A stretch of 64,000 nt of DNA from Gammaproteobacteria bacterium (lineage in GTDB: Bacteria > Pseudomonadota > Gammaproteobacteria > GCA-001735895), in contig JASFKL010000001.1 of the NCBI GenBank assembly GCA_050118655.1, positions 186 through 64,185 of the forward strand. The letters are read 5' to 3'. Of this stretch, positions 2,731-42,418 are shown one piece after another. Under the pieces are notes generated by a model. It had not been told where the DNA came from. It searched no databases and saw only the letters and a program-made list of their open reading frames with translations. Both the position numbers and the translations under genes were made by a program. Position 1 is the stretch's first letter. Each line of letters starts with the position of its first letter.

Positions 2731-4500
2731 ATGTTTCCCATTTCGAAGCCCCTGCCCGGGGACCGTAATCTGTTGGCCTATCCGCTGTTCGCGCTGTTGG
2801 TGGCGGGATGCGCGAACCTGCAACCCGCGCCCGATGCCGGCGGAGCGGACGCGGAGCCGATCCGGGCTCAGGACGCAGGCGACAACAGGCAGCAAATTGA
2901 CTCGCGCCTCGATGCGGTGGCGCTGGCTTCGGCCGGCTCGGTATATGTCGCTTACGATTTCGATTTCGAAAGCCAGCTGAAAATGGCCGAGACAGAGGCC
3001 GCCGAAAGACAGCGCGCGGCCGAGGCCGAAGCCAGGGCGGAAGCGGAGATCGTCGCCGCGATCAAGGCGGACCTGGAAGCGACCCGCAAGAAACACGATG
3101 CCTGGCTCAGGCTGCAACAGGGCATGCAATTGTCCGAGGTCCACAATGAGCGCGTCAACGCCCAGCTCAAATGGTTCGTCGATCACCCCGGATACATGCA
3201 ACGCGTGATGGAGCGCGCCCGTCCGATCCTGCCGTTCGTGCTCGACGAGCTCGAAGCGCGCAACCTCCCCAGCGAACTGGCCCTGCTGCCGATCGTCGAG
3301 TCGGCTTACCAGGCATTCGCCTATTCCCACGGACGCGCCTCGGGCATGTGGCAAATCATCCCCTCGACCGGCCGCTTCCTCGGGCTCAAGCAAAACTGGT
3401 GGTACGACGGACGTCGAGACATCATCGAGTCGACGCGCGCGGCGATCAATTATCTGCAGCAGTTGTCGCAGGAATTCGACGGCGACTGGGAACTCGCGCT
3501 CGCGGCCTACAACGCGGGGCCCGGCAGGATCCGCAGCGCGGTTCGCTACAACCGCTATCGGGACCGGCCGACCGATTTCTGGAGTCTGACCCGTATTCGC
3601 AAGGAGACCCAGGCTTACGTGCCGAAGATGTTCGCGCTCAAGGAAATGTTTACTCATCCGGAGAAGTACCAGCTCGACCTGTTGCCGATCAACAACCAGG
3701 TCAGTTACGAAATCGTCGAGCTCGACGGCCAGATCGATCTCGCGCTGGCCGCGGACCTGGCCGGAATCTCGGTGAATCAACTCTATCAGTTGAACCCGGC
3801 CTTCAATCGCTGGGCGACCGCGCCCGACGGGCCGCATCGCCTGCTGCTGCCGCGCGGCAAGGCGGATCATTTCAGGCACGAAGTCTCCAAGGTACCGAGT
3901 ACCAAGCGCATCAACTGGGTGCGGCACAAGATCAAGAGCGGTGAAACGCTGAGTGAAATCTCGCGACACTACCGGACTTCGGTGGCGCTGATCAGGGAAG
4001 TCAACAATATCCGCGGCAGCCATATCCGCGCCGGCAAATACCTGATGGTTCCGACGGCCACCAAATCGCTGAGAACCTATACCCTGAGCGCGAGTTCGCG
4101 GCTGGCAGCCCTGCAGAACACCGACCGCGGCGGAACCCGCCAGGAGCACATCGTGCGTCCGGGACAGAGCCTGTGGAGCATCTCGCGGAGCTACGGCGTC
4201 ACCACGCGGGCGCTCGCCAAGTGGAACGGCATGGCGCCGATCGATACCCTGCAGGTGGGACAGAAGCTCGTCGTATGGACCAGCGCCCAGGCGCGCAAGG
4301 TCAGTATCAGTCAGACGCGGCCCAGTAACGCATTACACGCGCTGCGCTACACTGTCCGCAAGGGAGATTCACTGTATCTCATCGCGGATCGCTTCAATGT
4401 CAGCATCGCGGATATCAGGCGCTGGAACCGGCTCGGCAAATATTTGCATCCCGGGCAAAAAATCAAACTTTACGTCGACATCACCAGTCAGTCCGGCTAG
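2731..4500 (+). CDS. mltD: Membrane-bound lytic murein transglycosylase D (lipoprotein, SLT domain + C-terminal LysM repeats)
   Basis: Lipobox LLVAGC; SLT catalytic region ...ESAYQAFAYSHGRASGMWQIIPSTG...; at least three LysM-like repeats in the C-terminal third; synteny with rnhA/dnaQ. Confidence 0.9.
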   Translation: MFPISKPLPGDRNLLAYPLFALLVAGCANLQPAPDAGGADAEPIRAQDAGDNRQQIDSRLDAVALASAGSVYVAYDFDFESQLKMAETEAAERQRAAEAEARAEAEIVAAIKADLEATRKKHDAWLRLQQGMQLSEVHNERVNAQLKWFVDHPGYMQRVMERARPILPFVLDELEARNLPSELALLPIVESAYQAFAYSHGRASGMWQIIPSTGRFLGLKQNWWYDGRRDIIESTRAAINYLQQLSQEFDGDWELALAAYNAGPGRIRSAVRYNRYRDRPTDFWSLTRIRKETQAYVPKMFALKEMFTHPEKYQLDLLPINNQVSYEIVELDGQIDLALAADLAGISVNQLYQLNPAFNRWATAPDGPHRLLLPRGKADHFRHEVSKVPSTKRINWVRHKIKSGETLSEISRHYRTSVALIREVNNIRGSHIRAGKYLMVPTATKSLRTYTLSASSRLAALQNTDRGGTRQEHIVRPGQSLWSISRSYGVTTRALAKWNGMAPIDTLQVGQKLVVWTSAQARKVSISQTRPSNALHALRYTVRKGDSLYLIADRFNVSIADIRRWNRLGKYLHPGQKIKLYVDITSQSG

Positions 4501-4617
4501 ATCCGGCGCTGCCATGGCGTTGCCGCGAGAATTTGTCCGCAGGTAGTTGCTTTATCCCGACCCAGACGCCAAAATAGACTTTTACGTGCGAACGACGAAG
4601 GGTTCCCCAACAAGATT

Positions 4618-5673
4618 ATGAGCCTTGAAATTGATCCCAAACAAATAAAATCCTTCTCTCCGATCAATTCTCTGAATCCAGAAAACGCTCAAGAATTAGT
4701 CAACAAAATTACCGCTACCCCGATCCAGGCGGGCCACTATATCTTCAAGAAAGGTGATATGGACAAGGCGCACGTCTACGTGCTCTCGGGCGAAGTGGAG
4801 CTGGTGCAGGACAAAAAGGTGGTCAAGACCATCAAGGCGGGCTCCCCGGAAGGCATGCAACCGCTGGCGCACGGATTTCCCCGGCCGGTGTCGGCGCGCG
4901 CCAAGGTCGCCTCGGTGGTCACCAAGATCAACAGCGACATGCTCGACATCATGCTGACCTGGGACCAGTCGGGCAGTTACTCGGTAGAACCCGTCGACGA
5001 AGAAGACGAAGAAACCGACTGGATGACCCGCATCCTGCAAACCCGGGCCTTCCATCGCATTCCGCCGGCCAATATCCAGGCGATGTTCATGCGCATGGAA
5101 TCGGTCAGCTTCAAGCCCGGCGAGAAAGTGATCGAACAGGATGCCGAGGGCGATTATTTCTACATCATCAAGGAAGGCCGTTGCCTGGTCACCCGCTCCA
5201 CGCCGGCCAACCCGAATGGCGTCAAGCTGGCGACCCTGTCGGTGGGCGACAGTTTCGGCGAGGAAGCGCTGATCTCCGACAGCAAGCGCAACGCGACGAT
5301 CACGATGCTGTCCGAGGGGCATTTGATGCGCCTCAACAAGGAGGATTTCAACTCGCTGCTGAACGAACCGCTGCTCAACTGGGTCGATTACGACGAGGCC
5401 AGGAAACTGGTCGATGCGGGCGCCGTCTGGTTCGACGTACGCCTGCCTACCGAGCACAAGGCCAAGCACATCAAGGGCAGTATCAATATCCCGCTGATTT
5501 TCCTGCGCATGAAGGCCAATTCGCTCGATACCGAAAAGAAATACGTCATCTATTGCGATACCGGCCGGCGCAGCTCCGCGGCCTCTTTTCTACTCAACGA
5601 AAAGGATATCGAGACCTTCGTATTGCGCGACGGCGTCGATACCGCCGAGCCCTCCGACCTGGTTACCAGCTAA
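4618..5673 (+). CDS. Tandem cyclic-nucleotide-binding (CAP-ED) domains fused to a C-terminal rhodanese domain with catalytic Cys (CDTGRRS)
   Basis: Two cNMP-binding cores (YIFKKGDMDKAHVYVLSGEVELV... and YFYIIKEGRCLV...VGDSFGEEALI with the hallmark FGEEAL); rhodanese motif VWFDVRLPTEH...YVIYCDTGRRSSAAS. Confidence 0.8.
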   Translation: MSLEIDPKQIKSFSPINSLNPENAQELVNKITATPIQAGHYIFKKGDMDKAHVYVLSGEVELVQDKKVVKTIKAGSPEGMQPLAHGFPRPVSARAKVASVVTKINSDMLDIMLTWDQSGSYSVEPVDEEDEETDWMTRILQTRAFHRIPPANIQAMFMRMESVSFKPGEKVIEQDAEGDYFYIIKEGRCLVTRSTPANPNGVKLATLSVGDSFGEEALISDSKRNATITMLSEGHLMRLNKEDFNSLLNEPLLNWVDYDEARKLVDAGAVWFDVRLPTEHKAKHIKGSINIPLIFLRMKANSLDTEKKYVIYCDTGRRSSAASFLLNEKDIETFVLRDGVDTAEPSDLVTS

Positions 5674-5702
5674 CGCGCCTCGACGCCGTCGGATCCCGCC
5701 GC

Positions 5703-7307
5703 TCAGCCGGCGTAGCCCGGGATTAGCGATTCGTCTATTTCGTCGATCTGCTCCGGATCGAGAAACTCCTCGGCGTAGTCGAGGTAAACCCGCTCGCGAA
5801 TGAAGATCTCGAAGATATCGGGATCGATGTGATTGTCCTTTTTCATGAATCCCATGATGCGCAGGCACTCGGACAGTTTCTTGCCATGCTTGTATGGCCG
5901 ATCGCTGGCGGTCAGGGCCTCGAAAATATCGGCCACCGCCATAATCCGGGCCTGTACCGACATTTCCTCCCTTTTGAGCCCGCGCGGGTATCCCGTGCCA
6001 TCCATTTTTTCATGATGTCCGCCGGCATACTCGGGTACGTTTTGCAAATTGCGGGGAAACGGCAGCGATTCCAGCATCTTGATGGTCGCGACGATATGGT
6101 TGTTGATGACTTCCCGCTCTTCATCGTTCAGCGTGCCGCGCTTGATACACAGGTTCATGACCTCGTCGTCGGTCAAAAGCGGCCGCGTCTCGCCGGACCC
6201 GTCCACCCATTCGAGCCCGGCGAGTTGCTTTACCCGGTCGATATCCTCGTCGCTCATGAATTCGCCGCCGACATTGGCCTTGCGCAAAAATTCGAAATCC
6301 TGCCGGTATTGCTCGCGACGGGATTCGAGATCCCTGTCCAGTTGTTCGACATCGGCCTTCGATCCGTTTGCCGCTAGACGTTTTTTCAAGTATTCGATTT
6401 CGGCGTCGCGCTGCAGGATCACGAAACGGGTTTCCAGCGCATTGATACGATCGTAAATCGTTTCCAGCTTGGTGGCCTTGTCCATCACGTACTCGGGGGT
6501 AACCACCTTGCCGCAATCGTGCAACCAGGCAGCGGTCTCGAGTTCGTAGCGATCCTTGTCGGTAATTCTGAAATCCTTCAGCGGCCCCTTGTCGTCCTGG
6601 TGCGCGGCCTCGGCAAGCATCATCGTCAATACCGGAATCCGCCGGCAATGACCGCCGGTATAGGGCGACTTGTCGTCGATCGCCGAGGCGATCATGCGGA
6701 TAAAAGATTCGAACAGGATTTGCAGTTCCGAGATCAGTCTCCGCTGGGTCAGCGCGACGGCTGCCTGGGAAGCCAGTGACTCGGCGAGTTGCTGTTCGAC
6801 GGCGCTGAAAACTTTGACCTCGCCGGTTTGCTCGTTCCTGGCATTGATCAATTGCAGCACGCCGATGATTTCCTTCTCGTGGTCCTTGAGCGGAAAGGTC
6901 AGCATGGAGCGGGTGCGGTAACCGGTCTTTTCGTCGAAGGCCCGCGTGCCCGAGAAATCGAAGCCGTCCTCGTTATAGGCGTCGGCAATGTTGATGGTTT
7001 CTCCGGACAGTACGCAGTGGGAGACGACGTTGGCATGGTTATCCTTGCCTTCGATCGACAGCGGTATCGCCGGAAAAGTGATTTCGTTACCCGAGGTACC
7101 GCCCATCTGTATATCGAGCGAATCGTTGGAAATGATCTCGAATCTGAGTTCGCCGTCGTTCAGAAAATACAGCGAGCCGCCATCCGCGTGGGTGAGCGAT
7201 TTTGCTCCCATCATGATCAGCTCGAGCAGCTTGGGCGTATCGTTTTCCGCCGACAGCGCGATGCCGATTTCATTTAACCGATCAATCCTGTCGAGCAATT
7301 CTGACAT
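5703..7307 (-). CDS. GAF-domain / HD-GYP-domain phosphodiesterase (probable c-di-GMP-specific)
   Basis: N-terminal GAF-like fold; HD motif AAWLHDCGKVVTPEY and GYP motif GGHHEKMDGTGYPRGL. Confidence 0.85.
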   Translation of the reverse strand: MSELLDRIDRLNEIGIALSAENDTPKLLELIMMGAKSLTHADGGSLYFLNDGELRFEIISNDSLDIQMGGTSGNEITFPAIPLSIEGKDNHANVVSHCVLSGETINIADAYNEDGFDFSGTRAFDEKTGYRTRSMLTFPLKDHEKEIIGVLQLINARNEQTGEVKVFSAVEQQLAESLASQAAVALTQRRLISELQILFESFIRMIASAIDDKSPYTGGHCRRIPVLTMMLAEAAHQDDKGPLKDFRITDKDRYELETAAWLHDCGKVVTPEYVMDKATKLETIYDRINALETRFVILQRDAEIEYLKKRLAANGSKADVEQLDRDLESRREQYRQDFEFLRKANVGGEFMSDEDIDRVKQLAGLEWVDGSGETRPLLTDDEVMNLCIKRGTLNDEEREVINNHIVATIKMLESLPFPRNLQNVPEYAGGHHEKMDGTGYPRGLKREEMSVQARIMAVADIFEALTASDRPYKHGKKLSECLRIMGFMKKDNHIDPDIFEIFIRERVYLDYAEEFLDPEQIDEIDESLIPGYAG

Positions 7308-7400
7308 CTACTGGCACCTGCCCCTCGCGGAGGCCGAGCTACGCGAGCTTCGAAAGTCGCTCTATTCTAGGTGAATCCCCGGGCATTTCAATTCCGGGCC

Positions 7401-7416
7401 GGTTAAATTTTTAACC
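7401..7416. promoter_or_regulatory. Inverted repeat GGTTAAA-TT-TTTAACC in the divergent promoter region between the HD-GYP gene and the CHASE2 kinase operon
   Basis: 7-bp perfect arms with 2-bp spacer, seen directly in an AT-rich 327-bp intergenic region. Confidence 0.3.
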
Positions 7417-7634
7417 CCAAGCACTGGTAAAAAAGCGCATTCAACCTTATAGTTTAGAGGCATCACGATTCATAAGAATACCGGGGGGGATCCAAGCTGT
7501 TAACCAGTTCAAGGTGTTCGCATAAACTATTGAATATTATACGAATCGGATTTCTTCATTTTCCGGTCGCACACCCAGTAAAGTACGACTATAACAAGCT
7601 GGGTGACTAATAAGAATCAAACTATGGAGACGGT

Positions 7635-10265
7635 ATGAAAACCCGTTTTTGGAGTAGCGACTGGTTCGCCGGGCTGCTGATTACCATCGTGATTGTGGCG
7701 GTCTCGGGTTCCGGCCCCTTCCAAAGCCTGGAGCGCTCGTTTTACGACTGGGGCGTGCGCTCGACCGACAGGACTCCCTCCGACAAGATTGCGATCATCG
7801 CCATCGACGACGAGAGTATCGACAACCTGGGCCGCTGGCCCTGGCCGCGCGACCTCCACGCCGAATTGATCAACCGGCTTTCCGAGGGCGGAGCCAAGGT
7901 CATCGGTCAAACCGTATTTTTCCTCGAACCCCAGGTCGATCCGGGGTTGACCTATATCCGCGAACTGATCGAGTTTTTCTCTACCGCGAGCTTCGGCGAC
8001 GTTCCCGCCGATATCGATGCGCTGGGCGCGATGCTGGAACTGGGCGGCAACAATCGCAAGATAAACGATATCCTCGAATTCTATCTCCAATCGAGCCTGA
8101 ATACGCGTCTCAACCAGGATATCGAAACCCTGAAATCCCGAATGTTCGAAGCCGAGCAGGCGCTCAACACCGACGCCAAGCTCGCCGAGAGCATGGAAAA
8201 AGCCAAGAACGTCGTGCTGGCGATGGTCTTTTACCTGGGCATCCCGCGCGGCAAGCCCGACGAGGAACTGCCCGACTACGTGCTGAAAAACTCGATCAGC
8301 CAGATCCGTGACCGCGTATCGGCACAACCCAACGGCCTGTTCCCGATTCCGACCATCGATGCGCTGACACCGATTCCGGAAATCGGCCGCTACGCGGCGG
8401 CGATCGGCCATCTCAATACCCTGCCCGATATCGACGGCGGGGTTCGTTCAGAGCCGCTGGTGCTGCAGTACTACGACCGCTTCTTCCCGTCGATATCGCT
8501 GCAAATCGCCGCGCGCAGCCTGAACCTCGACACCAACGACATCCGCGTCAATCTGGCGGAGAGCGTCGAACTCGGCAGTCTGGCAATCAAGACCGATACC
8601 CAGCTGCAGATGAATACCTTTTACTACTCGAATCGCGATGGTTTTCCGGCATTTCCGGTGGATTCGTTTTACGACGTATTCACCGGCAAGATTCCGATCG
8701 AAAAGTATCGCGGCAAGATCGTTTTGATCGGCCCCACCGCCACCGGCGTCGGTACGCCGCAGGTCACTCCCATCGATCCCGCAATGGCGCCGGTACTGAC
8801 GCTCGCACACTCGGTTTCGAGCATCCTCAAGGAGGATTTTTTCATCGAGCCCGAATGGGGCTTCTGGGCGCGCATGGGTACCTTCCTCGTGGTTGCGCTC
8901 TACCTGATGCTGCTGATGCCGCGGTTAAAGGCCGGTGTCGCTTTCGTGGTCACCACGGTGCTGGTGCTGGCACTGATCGCCACCCATTACATACTGATGA
9001 CCGGCAGCACGATGTGGATTCAGTTGATGACCCCGGGGGCCCTGCTGGTGATCGGTTACCTGTTGATCACCACCAAGAGATTCCTGGTCACCGAGCGCGG
9101 CAAGGCCAAATCCGACGTGGAATCGGCCGAGAGCAACCGGATGCTGGGTATCGCATTTCAAACCCAGGGTCAACTCGACATGGCGTTCGAAAAATTCCGC
9201 AAGTGCAGCCCGGTCGACGAACAGGTGCTCGAGGCGATGTACAACCTGGCGCTGGATTTCGAGCGCAAGCGGCAATTCAACAAGGCCACTTCGGTGTACC
9301 AGTACATGGCCAAGCACGACAAGAGCTTCCGTGATATCGAAACCCGTATGAACCGCGCGCAGAAGATGGAAGAAACCGTCATGCTCGGCGGTAGCGGCGG
9401 ACATGCGGGCGGCACCCTGCTGCTCGATGGCAGCGGTGTCGAAAAACCGATGCTGGGCCGTTACGAAGTCGAAAAGGAACTCGGCAAGGGCGCCATGGGT
9501 ATCGTCTACCTGGGCAAGGACCCCAAGATCAGCCGGGTCGTGGCGATCAAGACCATGGCCCTGGCGCAGGAGTTCGAAGCCGACGAACTCGACGAGGTCA
9601 AGGAGCGGTTCTTCCGCGAGGCGGAAACCGCGGGGCGCCTGAATCATCCCAATATCGTAACCATTTACGATGCCGGCGAGGAGCACGATCTCGCCTATAT
9701 CGCGATGGAATTTCTCAAGGGCTACGACCTTACGAAACACTGCAAGCCCGATAACCTGCTGGAAATGAATACCGTGGTCAGCATCGTCCAGCGCGCCGCC
9801 GAGGGCCTCGATTTCGCGCACCGGCAAAACGTCGTGCACCGCGATATCAAGCCGGCCAACATCATGTACGAGCCGGAATCGGATACCATCAAGATTACCG
9901 ATTTCGGTATCGCGAGAATTACCGATTCGAGCAAGACCAAGACCGGGATGGTACTCGGCACGCCCTCTTACATGTCTCCCGAACAACTGGCGGGCAAAAA
10001 AGTCGATGGACGTTCCGACCTGTTTTCACTCGGCGTCATGCTTTACCAGATGCTTTGCGGATCCCTGCCCTTCAAGGCGGATTCGATGGCCAGTCTGATG
10101 TTCAAGATCACCAACGAAGAGGCCCCGGACATTCGCAGCGTGCGCGAGGATATACCCCATGGCCTGGTCGAAGTAATCGCCTTGGCCATGACCAAGGATG
10201 CCGACCAGCGATATCAGACAGGAGCCGATTTTGCCAATGCATTGAAAGCATTTCTGAATAATTGA
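7635..10265 (+). CDS. CHASE2 sensor domain - transmembrane - TPR-like linker - Hanks-type Ser/Thr protein kinase
   Basis: CHASE2 signature IIAIDDESIDNLGRWPWPRDLHAELI; hydrophobic helices around residues 410-470; kinase motifs LGKGAMGIVY, HRDIKPANIM, DFGIA, GTPSYMSPE; RBS GGAGA upstream of the ATG. Confidence 0.85.
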   Translation: MKTRFWSSDWFAGLLITIVIVAVSGSGPFQSLERSFYDWGVRSTDRTPSDKIAIIAIDDESIDNLGRWPWPRDLHAELINRLSEGGAKVIGQTVFFLEPQVDPGLTYIRELIEFFSTASFGDVPADIDALGAMLELGGNNRKINDILEFYLQSSLNTRLNQDIETLKSRMFEAEQALNTDAKLAESMEKAKNVVLAMVFYLGIPRGKPDEELPDYVLKNSISQIRDRVSAQPNGLFPIPTIDALTPIPEIGRYAAAIGHLNTLPDIDGGVRSEPLVLQYYDRFFPSISLQIAARSLNLDTNDIRVNLAESVELGSLAIKTDTQLQMNTFYYSNRDGFPAFPVDSFYDVFTGKIPIEKYRGKIVLIGPTATGVGTPQVTPIDPAMAPVLTLAHSVSSILKEDFFIEPEWGFWARMGTFLVVALYLMLLMPRLKAGVAFVVTTVLVLALIATHYILMTGSTMWIQLMTPGALLVIGYLLITTKRFLVTERGKAKSDVESAESNRMLGIAFQTQGQLDMAFEKFRKCSPVDEQVLEAMYNLALDFERKRQFNKATSVYQYMAKHDKSFRDIETRMNRAQKMEETVMLGGSGGHAGGTLLLDGSGVEKPMLGRYEVEKELGKGAMGIVYLGKDPKISRVVAIKTMALAQEFEADELDEVKERFFREAETAGRLNHPNIVTIYDAGEEHDLAYIAMEFLKGYDLTKHCKPDNLLEMNTVVSIVQRAAEGLDFAHRQNVVHRDIKPANIMYEPESDTIKITDFGIARITDSSKTKTGMVLGTPSYMSPEQLAGKKVDGRSDLFSLGVMLYQMLCGSLPFKADSMASLMFKITNEEAPDIRSVREDIPHGLVEVIALAMTKDADQRYQTGADFANALKAFLNN

Positions 10266-10279
10266 GCCCAGACTGTTTG

Positions 10280-11104
10280 ATGAATTTGCAAAACAAGATA
10301 ACCATCCAGGGCCTGACTGACACGGGGATAGTGCGCGGCAAGAACGAGGACGCGATCGGTTATGACAGCGCGCTGGGTCTCGTGGTTCTCGCCGATGGCA
10401 TGGGAGGTCATCGCGGCGGCGAAATAGCCAGCAGTATGACCGTCGATACGGTTATCAATCTCCTGCAGCAGCGGCTGCCGGAAATCAACTCCGGCGACGT
10501 CGACGAAGCCAGTGGATTTTCGATGGAGTCGATTTGTATCCAGGATGCCGTGGTCGCGGCCAACGAACTGGTCTACAAGACCGCCGAGGCCAATCCCGAA
10601 CACAAGGGAATGGGCACCACGATCGTGGTATTGCAGTTCTACAACAATTCCTTCTCCCTCGCCCATATCGGCGACTCGCGCTGTTATCGTCTGCGCAATG
10701 ACAAGCTCGAACAGATTACCAAGGATCACTCCCTGTTACAGGAACTCATCGACCGCGGCTTCTATACGCCCGAAGAAGCGCGCAATTCGATGAACAAGAA
10801 TCTCGTGACGCGTGCCCTGGGCATCGATCCGATCGTCATGCCGGACATACAGGAGGATATAGTCCTGAAAAATGACATATATTTGCTATGTTCAGATGGG
10901 TTAACGGATTTAGTCGAAGACGAAGATATATACTTAACTATTAAGCAATTTAGTGCTAATCTAGAAGAAGCTGCCAAGCAATTGATTACAAAGGCAAACC
11001 AGAATGGCGGAAAGGATAATATTTCGGTAATGCTGTGCCGGATTGACGATGATTTTTCGTCCCGGCAAGGCTGGTTCAACAAGATTGTCGGCTGGTTCGA
11101 CTAA
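10280..11104 (+). CDS. PP2C-family Ser/Thr protein phosphatase
   Basis: GLTDTGIVRGKNEDA...VLADGMGGHRGGEIAS...LLCSDGLTD; the track ORF starts at TTG 10262, but the ATG at 10280 is preferred; immediately downstream of the kinase stop (10265), within 4 nt of it in the TTG model. Confidence 0.85.
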   Translation: MNLQNKITIQGLTDTGIVRGKNEDAIGYDSALGLVVLADGMGGHRGGEIASSMTVDTVINLLQQRLPEINSGDVDEASGFSMESICIQDAVVAANELVYKTAEANPEHKGMGTTIVVLQFYNNSFSLAHIGDSRCYRLRNDKLEQITKDHSLLQELIDRGFYTPEEARNSMNKNLVTRALGIDPIVMPDIQEDIVLKNDIYLLCSDGLTDLVEDEDIYLTIKQFSANLEEAAKQLITKANQNGGKDNISVMLCRIDDDFSSRQGWFNKIVGWFD

Positions 11105-11150
11105 CGGATTACACACCCAGTACAAACTACTCTACAGGCTGGATAATAAA

Positions 11151-11873
11151 ATGGTCGCAAAACTGATCACTACTTCAAGCACGGGCGAAAAAACCGAGTA
11201 TGAACTGGTCAATGAAACCACCACGATTGGGCGTAAGCCGGGTAACGATATTCAAATCGATAATCTGTCAGTCAGCGGCAGGCATGCGCAGGTAATCACC
11301 ATCCTCGAAGATTCATTTCTGGAAGATCTCGGCAGCACCAACGGCACTTACGTCAACGGCAAACTGGTAAAAAAACACGCGCTCGAAGACGGCGACAGTA
11401 TCACCCTGGGCAAGTATCAAATCACCTACCAGAATAACTCCGGCGGCGGTGAACAGGATTTCGAACAAACCATGATTATCCGCCCCGGCGAAGCGGGCAT
11501 GCCCGAAGAAGCCGGCAGCAAGGAAATCGACAAGTCGGTGCAAAAAATTTCAGCGGCGATCGCCTCGGAGGCAGCCAGCACAGCCTCGTCGCCGATGTCT
11601 AACAAGGAAGCCTGCCTGCAATTGCTCAGCGGCGCCAACGCCGGCAAGGAGCTGGTATTGACCAAGGCCCTGACCACCATCGGCCAGCCGGGTGTGCAGG
11701 TGGCGGCGATCACCCGCCGTCCGCAAGGCTTTTTCCTGATTCACGTCGATGGCGGCCCGAACAACAATGTCCCGAAAGTCGGCGGCTCGGAGATCGGCTC
11801 GAACGCGCACGAACTCAAGAGCCACGACATTATCGAAGTAGCCGGCGTAAAAATGGAGTTCTACCTCAAATAA
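11151..11873 (+). CDS. FHA-domain protein (phospho-Thr reader); second half is FHA-like
   Basis: TTIGRKPGNDIQIDNLSVSGRHAQV...STNGTYVNGKLV is an FHA core; start chosen at MVAKL (11151), after the PP2C stop at 11104. Confidence 0.75.
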   Translation: MVAKLITTSSTGEKTEYELVNETTTIGRKPGNDIQIDNLSVSGRHAQVITILEDSFLEDLGSTNGTYVNGKLVKKHALEDGDSITLGKYQITYQNNSGGGEQDFEQTMIIRPGEAGMPEEAGSKEIDKSVQKISAAIASEAASTASSPMSNKEACLQLLSGANAGKELVLTKALTTIGQPGVQVAAITRRPQGFFLIHVDGGPNNNVPKVGGSEIGSNAHELKSHDIIEVAGVKMEFYLK

Positions 11874-11913
11874 AGCCGTTCCTGCTCGTCCGCATTGAAA
11901 CCGGGGGCAAACA

Positions 11914-14145
11914 ATGCAATTACAGCGCATAGTCAGGCTGGTGCTTAGCGCACTGATCCTGCTGGTCATCCTGCTCGACACCTCCGGAGTTTACAAGTAT
12001 CCATTCATCAAGCAGCTGGAAAACTGGACTTACGACGCGCGGCTGAACTTTACCCGTCCCGATACCGTCGACGATCGCGTGGTTATCGTCGATATCGACG
12101 AAACCTCGCTCGCCGAGGTCGGCCGCTGGCCCTGGGGTCGCGACCAGCTCGCGCGCATCGTCGACAACCTGTTCGACTTTTACGGGGCCGACGTGGTCGC
12201 CTTCGATATCGTATTCGCCGAAAAAGACGAGAGCTCCGGACTGGAACAGTTCGAGCAGCTGGCGCGAACCACGTTGCGCGGCGACGAGGAATATATCGAG
12301 GCGCTCGATAAGATCCGGCCGAGCCTCAAACACGACGAAATTTTCGCGCAGAGCCTGGTCGGTAAAAACGTCGTTCTCGGCTATTACTTCAAGTCCAGGT
12401 TGCAGGAAGGAGAAAGCGGTGTCACCGGCCTCCTGCCCCCCGCATTGACCAGGATGGACAGGCAGTGGAGCGAACGCCTGCCGATCAACAAGGCGGTAGG
12501 CTACGGCGGCAACCTGGAAATACTGCAAACCTCGGCACGCTCCGGCGGCTACTTCGACAACCCCTTCGTCGATGCCGACGGCGTATTTCGCCGCGTGCCG
12601 CTGGTGCAGTCCTACCAGGGCTACCTGTTCGCCTCGCTGGCTCTCGCCACTACCCAGGCGTATCTCGACGCCGACGGTATCGAGCTGGCGATCGAAACCG
12701 AGGGAACGCGCGGCGAGAACGAATATTTCGCGCTGGAGACGATTAACCTGAAGAATCACAAGATTCCCGTGGACGCCAACGGCGCGGTGTTCGTGCCCTA
12801 CCGCGGCAGGCAGGGAAGCTTTCCCTATATCCCCGCCCACGAAGTGCTGAGCCGCAAGACCAACCCGCTGGCGCTAAAGAACAAGATCGTACTGATCGGC
12901 ACCTCGGCACCGGGCCTGCTCGACCTGCGCTCTACTCCAGTACAAAACATTTATCCCGGGGTCGAGGTCCATGCCAATATCATTTCCGGCATCCTCGACG
13001 ATCGTATCAAGCACAAGCCGGCCTGGACGGTGGGTTACGAACTCGTGTTACTGATAGTCATCGCGGTCAGCATGGCCTTGCTGTTGCCGCTGGTTTCGCC
13101 GCTGCTGGCGGCGACCGGGACGCTCGGGATTACCGGCCTGGTGGTCGCCGGAACCTTCGTCGCCTGGAACAACAACCTGATCCTGCCGCTGGCGAGCCCG
13201 CTGCTGCTGATTCTGTTGCTGTTCATGCTGCACATGTCCTACGGATTCTTCATCGAGTCCCGTGGCAAGCGGCAGCTCGCTAACCTGTTCGGGCACTACA
13301 TACCGCCCGAACTGGTCGACGAGATGAGCGAATCGCCCGAGGAATATTCGCTCGAGGGCGAGAACCGTGAAATGACCGTGCTGTTTTCGGACGTGCGCGG
13401 ATTCACGTCGATCTCGGAAGGCATGGACCCGAAACAGTTGACCCAGCTCATGAACGCGCTGTTGACGCCGATGACGCGCGTCATCCACAAGAACCGGGGT
13501 ACGATAGACAAGTACATGGGAGATGCCATCATGGCCTTCTGGGGCGCGCCGCTGGCCAATGCCGAGCATGCCCGGCACGCGCTCTATGCCGCACTCCAGA
13601 TGATGGAAGAACTGAAGATAATGCAGGAAGACTTCAAGCAACGCGGCTGGCCGACGGTCAACATCGGTATCGGCTTGAACACCGGCGACATGAACGTCGG
13701 CAACATGGGATCGGAATTCCGCATGGCTTATACCGTGCTCGGCGACGCGGTCAACCTGGGTTCGAGGCTCGAGGGCCTGACCAAGGAATACGGCGTCAAC
13801 ATCATCGTCAGCGAATCCACCAAGGCGGCGATACCCGAATTCGTATTCCGAGAACTCGACCTGGTCAGGGTGAAAGGCAAGAACGAACCGGTCGCAATTT
13901 TCGAACCGGTCGGGCACAAAAACGATCTCGACAAGTCGGTCACCTCGGAGATCAGCGAATACCGCAAGGCATTGATGAACTTTCGCTCCCAGTCCTGGGA
14001 CAAGGCCGAGCTCGATTTCTTCAACCTCAACCGCATCAACCCGGACCGGCAGCTATACCAGGTCTACCTCGAACGTATCGCGGTCTACCGCAGGGAGCCG
14101 CCCGGAGAGGGCTGGGACGGCGTTTTTACGCACACCACGAAGTAA
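11914..14145 (+). CDS. CHASE2 sensor domain - transmembrane - class III nucleotidyl cyclase (probable adenylate cyclase)
   Basis: CHASE2 signature VVIVDIDETSLAEVGRWPWGRDQLARIV; TM segments around residues 365-440; cyclase core MTVLFSDVRGFTSISE...TIDKYMGDAIMAFWGAP...YTVLGDAVNLGSRLE with Lys in KxxGD. Confidence 0.85.
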   Translation: MQLQRIVRLVLSALILLVILLDTSGVYKYPFIKQLENWTYDARLNFTRPDTVDDRVVIVDIDETSLAEVGRWPWGRDQLARIVDNLFDFYGADVVAFDIVFAEKDESSGLEQFEQLARTTLRGDEEYIEALDKIRPSLKHDEIFAQSLVGKNVVLGYYFKSRLQEGESGVTGLLPPALTRMDRQWSERLPINKAVGYGGNLEILQTSARSGGYFDNPFVDADGVFRRVPLVQSYQGYLFASLALATTQAYLDADGIELAIETEGTRGENEYFALETINLKNHKIPVDANGAVFVPYRGRQGSFPYIPAHEVLSRKTNPLALKNKIVLIGTSAPGLLDLRSTPVQNIYPGVEVHANIISGILDDRIKHKPAWTVGYELVLLIVIAVSMALLLPLVSPLLAATGTLGITGLVVAGTFVAWNNNLILPLASPLLLILLLFMLHMSYGFFIESRGKRQLANLFGHYIPPELVDEMSESPEEYSLEGENREMTVLFSDVRGFTSISEGMDPKQLTQLMNALLTPMTRVIHKNRGTIDKYMGDAIMAFWGAPLANAEHARHALYAALQMMEELKIMQEDFKQRGWPTVNIGIGLNTGDMNVGNMGSEFRMAYTVLGDAVNLGSRLEGLTKEYGVNIIVSESTKAAIPEFVFRELDLVRVKGKNEPVAIFEPVGHKNDLDKSVTSEISEYRKALMNFRSQSWDKAELDFFNLNRINPDRQLYQVYLERIAVYRREPPGEGWDGVFTHTTK

Positions 14146-38803: not shown

Positions 38804-41800
38804 CTAGATCTGTTCCAGCAGTGCCTGCGCCTCTTCCTTTTGCGCATCGTTGCCTTCGGCGATGACTTCCTCCAGGCTGCCGCGGGCGCCTTCGGTATCG
38901 CCCATGTCGATGAACGCGCGCGCCAGATCGAGCTTGGTCGACACCTCGTCCACGTCGTCCGGCAACATCAGGTCGTCGATATCGTCGAGATCGGCAGCAT
39001 CGGCTACCGCGGTCGGCTCGTCGAAGTCGCCGGGCGCGAAAGTACCGGTCCTGGCTTCCTCGTCGTCATCCTCCATGTCGACATCGATCGACAGGGAATC
39101 GTCGTCGCCGGCGGATTCCACCAGTGCCGTGGGCTCTTCGAAATCGTCGGCGCCGAAATCGAGTATCGATACATCCTCGTCGTCGTCGATATCCCCGTCG
39201 TCATCCGTCGGCAGCTGCAATTCACCGGTATCCAGCGACGGATCGTTGAGATCCATGATTCCGGTATCGTCCATACCGAGATCTATGCCCTCGTCGTCAT
39301 CGCTTTCGGAATCGTCGCCGCCGAGCAACGAGGCTTCCAGCTCATCGGAAGACACCACCGCGGTTGCTTCCAGGAAATCGTCGGCACCGTCTTCTTCGGG
39401 CACCTCCAGTTCGATCGAATCCTCGATTTCGTCACCGCCGTCGTCGTCATCCGCGAAACCCAGGTCTTCACCGAGATCGAAATCGGAGGGATCGTCGTCG
39501 GTGGTGCCGTCATCGAGGTCGAAATCCATCGCCATGTCGAGTTCGTCGTCTGCCTGGTCAGCCGATTCCCCGGCGCCGACGGTATCTTCGTCGTCTATCG
39601 AAAACTCGAGTTCGTCGCCGATATCATCGGGCAAGTCGAGGCCGCTGTCCTCCGGCTCTTCCGCCCGCTGATTCAGATTCGTTTCGTCGTCCTCGCCGAG
39701 GTCGGGGAAATCGCCGACTTGCTGGACCACCTGGGTGGCCGCGACTTCTTCCTCGCCCAATTCCGGCAACTCGTCGACTTGCTGGATGACCTGGGTAGGC
39801 GGTAAGCTGTCGTCGTCACCCCCCGATTCGTCTTCGTTGAAATCCCCTCCGGTATCGTCGGCGCCGAGATCGAAATCGGTAGTCGAGAAGCTGGTATCGT
39901 CATCATCGGCGCCGAGATCGAAATCAGCCTCCTGGGGGTTGGCGATCTCCAGATCCGCGGCACTCAGATCACTGTCCTTGGCCTCCGAGAACAGCGGATT
40001 GTCTGGCGCCAGTTCGTAGCCCATGATTTGCACGCGATCCCAGTAACGTGTCGCCGCATCGCCCATCGACTTGAGTTTTTCCGCTTCCTTGACGAAAGCC
40101 GATTCGTTCTTGGTCGCGAAATAGGTATCGAGCAGTTTCGAGCGGTAATCGGCGCGATCCGGATTATCGGTCAGGCTGCTGTTGAGTAATTCCTCGGCAT
40201 TGTCGTACAGGCCATAGGCGAGGTAGACATCGACCTCGTTGAGCACGTCGTCCTGTTCGGCGGGCTCTGCCGTGGCCGCCGGAGCGGGTGCTTCGGGCTC
40301 CGGCATATCGGTTGCCGAAATGATCGAGGTCTGCGCAAAATCATCCTCGGCTTGGGGCGGCACTTCGGCGGTAACTTCCGCCGTCGAGGTCATCGTATCC
40401 AGTTCGTCGGCGGACGGGATATCCTCGTCCGACGGTGTCTTGATGTCGGTATCTTCGGGGAGTTCGACATCCGCGAGATGAATCGGGGTCAGTTCTTCTT
40501 CGTCGTCGGCGAAAAGATCCTCGTCGCCGCTCGCGGTTATCGTCGATTCGCTGTCACTGCTGTTTTTTTTTCTCTTGATTACCAGCAGGGCCACCAGGAG
40601 CAGGACTACCCCGCCGAGCGCGGCGAGCGTAATCGGGTCGCTGAAGATTCCGCCCATAGAAGGCATCGACGGAATCATGTCGGCGGCGCCGGCCGGGAGA
40701 ATTCCATCCAGGAAGGACGGCTCGCGTTTCGTCTGTTCGGTTACTATTACGGGCGCCGGCGGAGTGGTCTGCTGTGCGGCCTGTCCCTGGTCGTCCGACT
40801 GCCCGCCGGTGGCGGCTTCTTCGCCCTCGTCGGCGGCCATCCCCTCGGTGGAACCCATTTCGGCGGCAGGCGCCTGCCCGGCAGCTTCGTCTTCGACCAT
40901 GCCGCCTGCAGTTCCCTCGTCGCTGACCATGCCGTCGTCGCTGGCCGCCGGGGCTTTCGCAGCCTCTTCCTCGGCCTGGGCCGCGGCCTCTTCGGCAAGT
41001 AATTCCTCGATGAGCGCATCCTCGCTGGACTCCACCTTCCCGTTACCCGCTTCAGCCGGTGGTTCCTCGACAGGCTCGCCACCTTCGGATGCTCCAGCTT
41101 CCGGTTGCTGGGCGGACTGATCGGCCTGCAGCCTGGCCAGGCTGTCATCCTCGATCTCGACCATTTTTTGCAGTTCTTCGACCTTGGACAGGCGTGCCTG
41201 GAGATCCGAGATACGCGATTCGAGTTCGCGATTCTCGATTCGGGAGGCCTCGAGTTCTTCCTCGGCCATCGCCAGCTTGGTGCGTAACTCTTCAACCTCG
41301 GCACCATCGCCGGTTCCCGCCGAATCGCCGCCGCCGTCGGCGGGCAACAGCAGGCTCAATTCGCCACCAGACTCGCCGGTATCGGCGGTCTCGCCGCCGG
41401 CGGATTCGGTGGATTCGGCGGACTCGCCCTGATCGACCGCGGCCGTCGTCGAAACGCCGGTTACCCGTGCGACATACTCGTCCCACAGACCATTCTGGAC
41501 CAGGACTTCCGCGTAGGCTTCCTGCTCACCCATGGCATCGAGTTCGGCGGCATCGGGAGCGCGCAGAATCGCGCCCTCCTTCATATTGTTGATATTACCG
41601 TCATTGAAGGCATCCGGGTTGGCGCGCTGAAAGGCGAGCATAACCTGCGACATGCTGTGACGGTCGTCCTTATAGAGCTTGGCGATACTCCAGAGGGTGT
41701 CGCCCTTATTGACGTATACCTCCTGGTCGAGGCCGGTCTGCGAACTGGAGGGCGTGTACTGGTAACTGCTCGAGTCGGCTATCGGCTCGGGCTCCGGTTG

Positions 41801-42418
41801 GGCTACCGGCTCGGGCGTCGCGATCTCGTTGCCAGAGCCGTCATCCGACAAGGCGATCGGCTCGCTGAGCTGCTCGCCGGTTTCGGCAGACTCGGCGGAT
41901 TCGGATTCCATGGTGCTGGTCACGCCGGTCTGCTCGACGATATCGCTGACACTCGATTCGTCGCTGATCGGTGCGGCGGCCTGCTGGCTGGCAGGCTCTA
42001 CGGGCGGCGGCTGATCGGCATAGAACGGCGGGTCGAGCAAGACCGTGAATTCGCGCAGTACCCTGCCCTTGGCCCAATCGGCCTCGATGAGGAAATTCAG
42101 AAAGGGTTCCTTGACGCCGTCCTTGGTGGACACCACGATGACGGCCTCGTCGCCGGCCTCGTTCTTCCTGACGGAAAAACGCAGGTCCAGAAGATTGCGC
42201 GGGCGTGCCAGGCCGGCGCGGGAAAATGCTTCGCGGGAAGCGAGGCTGACCAGTAAATCGTCGATCTCGCCGGGACGGGCGGAAATAACCGGGATCTCCG
42301 CTTCTAGCGGCTGGTTCAGGAATGACTTGACTTCGATCTCACCCAAACCCAAGGCGAGCGCGTTGGTCGGCAAGATCGCCGTTAGCCACAATGCAACTAT
42401 TAGTCCCAGATTACGCAC
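38804..42418 (-). CDS. fimV: FimV-like peptidoglycan-binding pilus/polar-organisation protein (signal peptide, LysM, hyper-acidic repetitive linker, TM helix, C-terminal FimV TPR motif)
   Basis: LysM YVNKGDTLWSIAKLY...; TM MGGIFSDPITLAALGGVVLLLVALLVI; C-terminal DLARAFIDMGDTEGARGSLEEVIAEG; asd-fimV-truA synteny. Confidence 0.85.
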   Translation of the reverse strand: MRNLGLIVALWLTAILPTNALALGLGEIEVKSFLNQPLEAEIPVISARPGEIDDLLVSLASREAFSRAGLARPRNLLDLRFSVRKNEAGDEAVIVVSTKDGVKEPFLNFLIEADWAKGRVLREFTVLLDPPFYADQPPPVEPASQQAAAPISDESSVSDIVEQTGVTSTMESESAESAETGEQLSEPIALSDDGSGNEIATPEPVAQPEPEPIADSSSYQYTPSSSQTGLDQEVYVNKGDTLWSIAKLYKDDRHSMSQVMLAFQRANPDAFNDGNINNMKEGAILRAPDAAELDAMGEQEAYAEVLVQNGLWDEYVARVTGVSTTAAVDQGESAESTESAGGETADTGESGGELSLLLPADGGGDSAGTGDGAEVEELRTKLAMAEEELEASRIENRELESRISDLQARLSKVEELQKMVEIEDDSLARLQADQSAQQPEAGASEGGEPVEEPPAEAGNGKVESSEDALIEELLAEEAAAQAEEEAAKAPAASDDGMVSDEGTAGGMVEDEAAGQAPAAEMGSTEGMAADEGEEAATGGQSDDQGQAAQQTTPPAPVIVTEQTKREPSFLDGILPAGAADMIPSMPSMGGIFSDPITLAALGGVVLLLVALLVIKRKKNSSDSESTITASGDEDLFADDEEELTPIHLADVELPEDTDIKTPSDEDIPSADELDTMTSTAEVTAEVPPQAEDDFAQTSIISATDMPEPEAPAPAATAEPAEQDDVLNEVDVYLAYGLYDNAEELLNSSLTDNPDRADYRSKLLDTYFATKNESAFVKEAEKLKSMGDAATRYWDRVQIMGYELAPDNPLFSEAKDSDLSAADLEIANPQEADFDLGADDDDTSFSTTDFDLGADDTGGDFNEDESGGDDDSLPPTQVIQQVDELPELGEEEVAATQVVQQVGDFPDLGEDDETNLNQRAEEPEDSGLDLPDDIGDELEFSIDDEDTVGAGESADQADDELDMAMDFDLDDGTTDDDPSDFDLGEDLGFADDDDGGDEIEDSIELEVPEEDGADDFLEATAVVSSDELEASLLGGDDSESDDDEGIDLGMDDTGIMDLNDPSLDTGELQLPTDDDGDIDDDEDVSILDFGADDFEEPTALVESAGDDDSLSIDVDMEDDDEEARTGTFAPGDFDEPTAVADAADLDDIDDLMLPDDVDEVSTKLDLARAFIDMGDTEGARGSLEEVIAEGNDAQKEEAQALLEQI

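Follow-up and report, generated by a model that had tools for sequence, protein, structure and literature searches.

The window analysed here, a stretch of 64,000 nucleotides of a gammaproteobacterial contig (JASFKL010000001.1), carries at 4618..5673 on the plus strand (stop codon included) a gene for a protein of 351 residues, in which two cyclic nucleotide-binding (CNB) domains precede a rhodanese domain. The reading frame opens with ATG, and the alignment indicates that homologues share its start methionine. A protein identical to the product is present in public data (P0001), under the name 'cyclic nucleotide-binding domain-containing protein'. In the Pfam search, cNMP_binding (PF00027) matches the whole protein with an E value of 1.9e-28 and 98.7 bits over two stretches, the best of which spans residues 163-249, and Rhodanese (PF00581) covers residues 259-340 (E 1.5e-12, 48.2 bits against a cut-off of 22.2). 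Two CNB domains are assigned because the N-terminal 129 residues, when scanned alone, still reach 39.2 bits against the curated cNMP_binding cut-off of 27.5. This confirms the order of two CAP domains ahead of a rhodanese that had been proposed in an earlier note on this DNA. No output domain besides the rhodanese, including any DNA-binding domain, was found in the protein with Pfam and NCBIfam. The product is a small soluble cytoplasmic protein, composed of an altered first domain (CNB1), an intact second domain (CNB2) and a rhodanese that keeps its catalytic cysteine.

The inspection of the phosphate-binding cassettes reveals that the two CNB domains are not equivalent. The pattern used for comparison was the canonical F-G-E...R-[STAN]-A-[TS], where the Glu contacts the ribose 2'-OH and the Arg the phosphate, and conservation was counted over 144 aligned family modules sharing 40-56% identity with the query. 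CNB2 (5017..5382, residues 134-255) possesses conserved N-terminal helices (DWMT...IPPANIQ), a C-terminal helix (residues 241-252) and an intact cassette (GDSFGEEALISDSKRNATITM, 5245..5307) that follows the canonical pattern (FGEEALISDSKRNAT). Its signature, G-D-x-F-G-E-E-A-L...R-N-A-T, is essentially invariant across the family: Gly214 and Glu215 occur in 144/144 modules, Phe213 in 142/144, Arg224 in 141/144, Ala226 in 135/144 and Asn225 in 130/144. The FGEEAL motif that the earlier note had assigned to the second domain is indeed located there, at residues 213-218 (nucleotides 5254-5271). The cassette of CNB1 (domain at 4675..4968, about residues 20-117, Pfam match 36-109; altered cassette AGSPEGMQPLAHGFPRPVSARA at 4837..4902) departs from the pattern. 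Although Pro88 (142/144) and Arg89 (137/144) are retained, the query has Gly-Met, and the family consensus Ala-Arg, in place of the canonical Gly-Glu pair. The two domains, previously treated as alike, must thus be distinguished: the cassette of CNB2 is intact, whereas CNB1 lacks the ribose-binding Glu and should not be counted as a canonical cyclic nucleotide monophosphate (cNMP) site. Between them lies an acidic, probably disordered linker (SGSYSVEPVDEEDEET, 4969..5016, residues 118-133) with a predicted local distance difference test (pLDDT) score below 50, whose length and sequence vary among relatives. The mean identity per domain, given for close and distant relatives, respectively, is highest for CNB2 (96% and 53%), intermediate for the rhodanese (91% and 46%) and lowest for CNB1 (84% and 35%), so CNB2 is the most and CNB1 the least constrained part of the protein. 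Sequence matches of CNB2 in the PDB are the cNMP-binding domains of PKG and of PKA regulatory subunits.

The single-domain rhodanese (5383..5637, residues 256-340) contains the active-site loop Cys313-Asp-Thr-Gly-Arg-Arg-Ser319, encoded at 5554..5574. Careful alignment, on which the domain might have turned out to be a Cys-less variant, places Cys313 without gaps on the catalytic Cys of PspE (loop CNAGRQS, within YCNAGRQS) and on the equivalent position of the rhodanese domains of CoA-disulfide and CoA-persulfide reductases. The active-site codon proposed earlier at 5554-5556, within YCDTGRRS, reads TGC and corresponds to Cys313. The loop is of the short C-X5-S type, in which the catalytic Cys begins a six-residue loop, and it is widely conserved (Cys313 in 140/144 modules, Ser319 in 139/144, Gly316 in 133/144 and Arg318 in 126/144). 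PDB sequence matches of the domain are PspE, the rhodanese domain of CoA-disulfide reductase, and YgaP. The query rhodanese has the same fold and size as the rhodanese domains of PspE, GlpE and YgaP and shares their DVR...E and N-x-P-L motifs; it differs in being fused behind two CNB domains and in the Asp next to its Cys. It is no orthologue of PspE or GlpE, as the NCBIfam scores fall far below the equivalog cut-offs (39.0 bits against 102 for NF007627 and 36.3 against 126.3 for TIGR02981). From the conserved loop we infer a sulfurtransferase or persulfide-transfer chemistry at Cys313. Taken together, the conserved CNB2 cassette and Cys313 fit a coupling between a domain that binds nucleotides and a rhodanese that depends on its cysteine.

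In the AlphaFold2 model of the protein, built on an alignment of 31 sequences (mean pLDDT 82.8, predicted template modelling score (pTM) 0.49), two beta-barrel CNB domains are joined by the disordered linker, the barrel of CNB1 being followed by a helix. Helix 241-252 of CNB2 runs straight into the rhodanese, an alpha/beta domain with pLDDT values mostly of 80-96. In the PDB, Foldseek places the tandem CNB-A/B domains of PKA regulatory subunits and of PKG at the top of its fold matches (E about 1e-19, ~250-285 aligned columns). The root-mean-square deviation with respect to these tandem domains amounts to 12-19 A, so that their domain arrangement is not reproduced; because of this high deviation and the low pTM, the arrangement in the query is not established.

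The architecture is far from rare. At E <= 1e-5 the protein matches more than 7,000 clusters defined at 90% identity, the best 120 of which all contain both Pfam domains, and at E <= 1e-30 it matches 1,321 representatives of 50%-identity clusters. Among the best 150 of these representatives, nearly all match the whole module (query residues about 5-345) with 40-56% identity. The query carries the hallmarks of this family: the DWMT linker motif, the RNAT cassette, the C[DN][TS]GxRS loop and the collinear order of the three domains. The rhodanese homology domain was listed among the partners of bacterial CNB domains by Kannan et al. 2007. The earlier description of the fusion as uncommon can therefore not be maintained for an abundant architecture catalogued since 2007; it is catalogued but functionally uncharacterised.

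Stand-alone proteins of 340-375 residues, such as the one in the window, account for only 25 of the best 150 representatives. In ~62 of them the module forms the N-terminus of much longer proteins of 1,040-1,808 residues, in which it is followed by a coiled coil of ~700-1,000 residues, one membrane (hydrophobic) helix and a C-terminal FGE-sulfatase domain. The remaining proteins of 400-1,000 residues mostly lack C-terminal parts and are probably fragments. The N-terminal 350 residues of the long forms align with the query over its full length (40-51% identity), with the same Cys and the same CNB2 cassette; unlike the long forms, the window protein ends right after the rhodanese. In NCBI, the long forms of Gammaproteobacteria such as Thiohalobacteraceae carry the annotation 'SUMF1/EgtB/PvdO family nonheme iron enzyme' (e.g. 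MBZ0070909.1). Examples are P0124, P0127, P0137 and P0147, with loci at L076:8001-13016 and L077:8001-12770; their neighbours include HU, TerB and ExeA/T2SSB-like genes and an ABC transporter, and L076 has, just downstream, a separate rhodanese and a GGDEF gene. Neither a separate FGE-sulfatase gene nor a second copy of the module was found in the window or in 72 related loci. The literature searches returned no description of the long-form architecture, which is newly noted here and which the majority of relatives at 40-50% identity to the window protein possess.

The surroundings of the gene were annotated with Pfam. Upstream, dnaQ (757-1539), rnhA (1452-1895) and a methyltransferase gene of 254 codons (1901-2665) occupy the minus strand. 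An open reading frame on the opposite strand (1721-2707, plus, 328 residues) was rejected as a shadow of the latter, since it has no Pfam match and retains ~50% identity in close relatives, compared with ~76% for the overlapping methyltransferase. A lytic transglycosylase gene of the MltD type (SLT and three LysM domains; 2731..4500, plus) ends 117 nucleotides before the CNB-rhodanese gene. On the other side, a convergent gene for a GAF and HD-GYP phosphodiesterase (5703..7307, minus) has its stop codon 29 nucleotides from that of the CNB-rhodanese gene; its motifs HD263, HHE431 and GYP439 are intact. GAF domains are able to bind cNMPs, and this protein may be a second cyclic AMP (cAMP)-responsive protein of the locus. 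Beyond it lies a signalling operon (7635..14145, plus) with genes for a CHASE2-Ser/Thr kinase (7635-10265), a PP2C phosphatase (10262-11104, overlapping the kinase stop by 4 nucleotides), an FHA protein (11043-11873, start uncertain) and a CHASE2-class III cyclase (11914-14145). Two proteins with CHASE2 sensors, the kinase and the cyclase, are thus encoded in one tight operon, with PP2C and FHA between them. A scan for promoters and terminators over 4300-7800 gave none above the shuffled expectation, and none between mltD and the CNB-rhodanese gene or after it. Elsewhere in the window (38804-42418, minus) a FimV homologue of 1,204 residues (FimV_N) is encoded; in Pseudomonas, FimV is tied to the activation of the adenylate cyclase CyaB.

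The gene order is kept in ~58 species-level genomes with 69-92% identical orthologues, all of them uncultured Gammaproteobacteria together with the Olavius algarvensis Gamma 3 symbiont. The scaffold of this endosymbiont (L047, 869103-890155) contains a 90% identical orthologue in a full syntenic neighbourhood, which places the source of the window in the same marine gammaproteobacterial clade, as a close relative of free-living or symbiotic habit. The HD-GYP gene is present in most syntenic loci and has no match in 13 related genomes that keep the CNB-rhodanese gene; it is really missing in eight of these 13, where sequence is available on both sides (L003, L004, L006, L016, L018, L022, L028 and L052). 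In L016, L018, L028 and L029 nothing matches the kinase gene, and PP2C follows the CNB-rhodanese gene, which is kept. At 54-56% identity (L073 and L075) the order mltD, CNB-rhodanese, HD-GYP, kinase, PP2C, FHA is still preserved, and the adjacency of mltD and the CNB-rhodanese gene is thus maintained down to 54% identity; no cyclase is found at the operon end in these two loci. Relatives at 40-45% identity have different neighbours (an MltF-like transglycosylase, dnaX and a Band 7 protein), and no cyclase occurs among the scanned neighbours of three of them. The transglycosylase upstream is of the MltD type (LysM and SLT) in the window clade, L073 and L075; a divergent gene of the MltF type (SBP_bac_3 and SLT) is present in Acidiferrobacterales/Muproteobacteria (L064:5721-7229 and L067:8129-9904, both minus). 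This adjacency may reflect coincidence or a link to the envelope.

The cyclase encoded at 11914-14145 displays the Lys (GTIDKYMGD) and Thr (AYTVLGD) found in P. aeruginosa CyaB (3R5G) and lacks the Glu/Gly pair of the guanylate cyclase Cya2 (2W01). It is therefore probably an adenylate cyclase of the class IIIb type that makes cAMP, as judged by these specificity residues. The Thr has been reported to be predictive of bicarbonate regulation in soluble adenylate cyclase-like enzymes (PMC3383692). Because the neighbouring cyclase has the Lys/Thr pair of adenylate cyclases, cAMP is the likely ligand of the CNB-rhodanese protein. The earlier statement that the gene adjoins a cyclase-encoding operon holds in that the operon is nearby; it is not adjacent, as the convergent GAF/HD-GYP gene lies between. 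Little weight is given to a conserved functional link with the cyclase, since synteny with the latter is confined to the clade at >=69% identity, and adjacency is weak evidence for such a link because the lineage keeps the entire region collinear, housekeeping genes included.

Comparison with characterised systems helps to place the fusion. The tandem CNB domains of PKA regulatory subunits and PKG resemble the query in that two domains follow each other and the C-terminal helix of one feeds the next; in contrast to them, the query has no dimerisation/docking domain and no inhibitor sequence, its first cassette is non-canonical and its output is a rhodanese rather than a kinase. It is not a CRP/FNR factor either, as it lacks a C-terminal helix-turn-helix: no helix-turn-helix family is among its Pfam matches, and the CRP/FNR match in NCBIfam reaches only 15.9 bits against a cut-off of 274. 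The NCBIfam model of Pat, the mycobacterial cAMP-dependent lysine acetyltransferase (Rv0998/MSMEG_5458), matches CNB2 weakly (E 2.4e-9). As in the query, a CNB domain is fused directly to a catalytic domain in Pat, although its effector is a GNAT domain behind a single CNB domain, whereas the query has two CNB domains and a rhodanese. Pat is a working model for allosteric relief or gating by a CNB domain, and the query presumably works most like bacterial CNB-regulated enzymes of this kind. The query may also resemble CbpA of P. aeruginosa, which has no rhodanese and in which the N-terminal CNB domain is degenerate and the C-terminal one conserved. CbpA is a cAMP receptor other than a transcription factor (Endoh and Engel 2009, J Bacteriol 191:7193, as cited in PMC11139211).

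From the domain composition, the intact motifs, the family-wide conservation and the neighbourhood described above, we infer a ligand, an allosteric coupling and a sulfur-transfer chemistry, and the best reading is that of a cAMP receptor whose CNB2 gates the rhodanese cysteine. It is put forward tentatively, with a likelihood somewhat short of even. This reading is favoured because the rhodanese is the sole output domain and because the most constrained parts of the protein are the canonical CNB domain and the catalytic-type loop. CNB2, with all canonical nucleotide-contacting residues in place, would probably bind cAMP; the class III adenylate cyclase whose gene lies 6 kb downstream is one likely supplier of this ligand. 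CNB1, which keeps the fold and the cassette Arg and lacks the ribose-binding Glu, would probably act as a structural or regulatory partner rather than as a second canonical site, in a cooperation with CNB2 that may be likened to that of the tandem A/B domains of PKA regulatory subunits. In known CNB domains the C-terminal helix is the element that moves upon ligand binding; the corresponding helix of CNB2 (241-252) is predicted to enter the rhodanese at about residue 256. Since this helix leads into the rhodanese, nucleotide binding would be expected to alter the exposure or reactivity of the Cys313 loop. Such a change could gate both the acceptance of sulfane sulfur, as a Cys313 persulfide, and its transfer to a partner. 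The earlier interpretation is thus partly supported overall, and regulation of a sulfurtransferase activity by cAMP or cyclic GMP, which the architecture suggests, is a plausible hypothesis.

Several observations weigh against this reading. The cassette Arg is followed by Asn (RNAT), which is the pattern of neither PKA nor PKG and bears on the identity of the ligand. Asp314, beside Cys313, is atypical of the electropositive pocket that holds a persulfide. With a pTM of 0.49, the AlphaFold2 model defines neither the packing of the domains nor an occlusion of Cys313. Furthermore, the cyclase and the CNB-rhodanese gene lie in separate transcription units, more distant relatives have no cyclase at the corresponding position, and the attachment of the module in the long forms, to which most distant relatives belong, resembles a signalling or scaffolding head more than a metabolic enzyme. 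In the literature, no functional study of a cNMP-rhodanese fusion was found, the only returns being the table entry of Kannan et al. and unrelated encapsulin papers.

The main rival is a signalling adaptor or sensor rather than an enzyme, in which persulfidation or oxidation of the Cys would report on sulfane sulfur or on the redox state, or else the Cys would serve as a surface for protein interaction, so that the protein would integrate this second input with cAMP and signal through partners. In ~62 of the best 150 representatives the module heads a long protein that continues through a coiled coil and a membrane helix to an FGE-sulfatase domain, which is consistent with this role. The same applies to the conserved gene order next to GAF/HD-GYP and kinase/PP2C/FHA, which extends to relatives at 54-56% identity, and to the presence of the sulfur-oxidising symbiont Olavius algarvensis Gamma 3 in the lineage. 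However, the whole catalytic-type loop (Cys, Gly, Arg and Ser) is conserved, as expected of real sulfur transfer; the syntenic region also includes dnaQ, rnhA and mltD, so that adjacency may reflect descent rather than function. An adaptor role is accordingly regarded as rather unlikely, though it is a serious contender.

A constitutive housekeeping sulfurtransferase or sulfur carrier, whose CNB domains are blind to nucleotides and purely structural, would agree with the position of the gene beside dnaQ, rnhA and mltD and with the clear alteration of CNB1. It is nevertheless improbable, as CNB2 is the best conserved domain and its ligand-contacting residues are invariant or nearly so, which is hard to explain without ligand binding.

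It is equally hard to regard the protein as a counterpart of PKA regulatory subunits that inhibits the neighbouring CHASE2 Ser/Thr kinase and is released by cAMP. In sequence and in fold, the tandem CNB domains do match PKA regulatory subunits and PKG best, and a eukaryotic-type kinase gene lies 2 kb away. Yet only ~20 residues precede CNB1, with no pseudosubstrate or inhibitor segment (RRxS/A) among them, and the CNB1 cassette is non-canonical, without Glu. Moreover, the four genomes in which the kinase gene has no match keep the CNB-rhodanese gene, no kinase occurs among the checked neighbours of relatives at 40-45% identity, and the conserved rhodanese Cys would be left unexplained; this mechanism is thus very doubtful. 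A Cdc25- or ArsC-like phosphatase or arsenate reductase is scarcely credible: the rhodanese fold is akin to that of Cdc25 (Bordo and Bork 2002, as cited in PMC2887360) and phospho-signalling genes nearby would fit, but the loop C-D-T-G-R-R-S, ungapped against PspE, has Ser and not Arg at +6, and the seven-residue C-X5-R loop with the CE[F/Y]SxxR motif (PMC2887360) is absent.

A broader extension of the cAMP-receptor reading, speculative and quite unlikely as it stands, would regard the CNB-CNB-rhodanese module as a so far unrecognised signalling switch of sulfur-cycling Gammaproteobacteria, which would either persulfidate proteins under the control of cAMP or detect the coincidence of cAMP and sulfane sulfur. 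It would exist in a free form and in a giant membrane-anchored coiled-coil form, of which the module would be the cytoplasmic head and the FGE-sulfatase-like domain an extracytoplasmic part. If this were true, the membrane-anchored form would connect events at the envelope with the status of second messenger and sulfur. The long forms hint in any case at a second, unexplored use of the module.

Few bacterial cAMP effectors have been characterised outside the CRP-type transcription factors (review PMC11139211). Since the protein is small and soluble and offers clear positions for point mutants (E215/R224 and C313), the hypothesis would be cheap to test. A cAMP-controlled rhodanese, if true, would provide a post-translational route from a second messenger to sulfur trafficking or persulfide signalling, in a lineage to which Gammaproteobacteria of marine sediments and the sulfur-oxidising Olavius Gamma 3 symbiont belong and in which sulfur status is central to metabolism.

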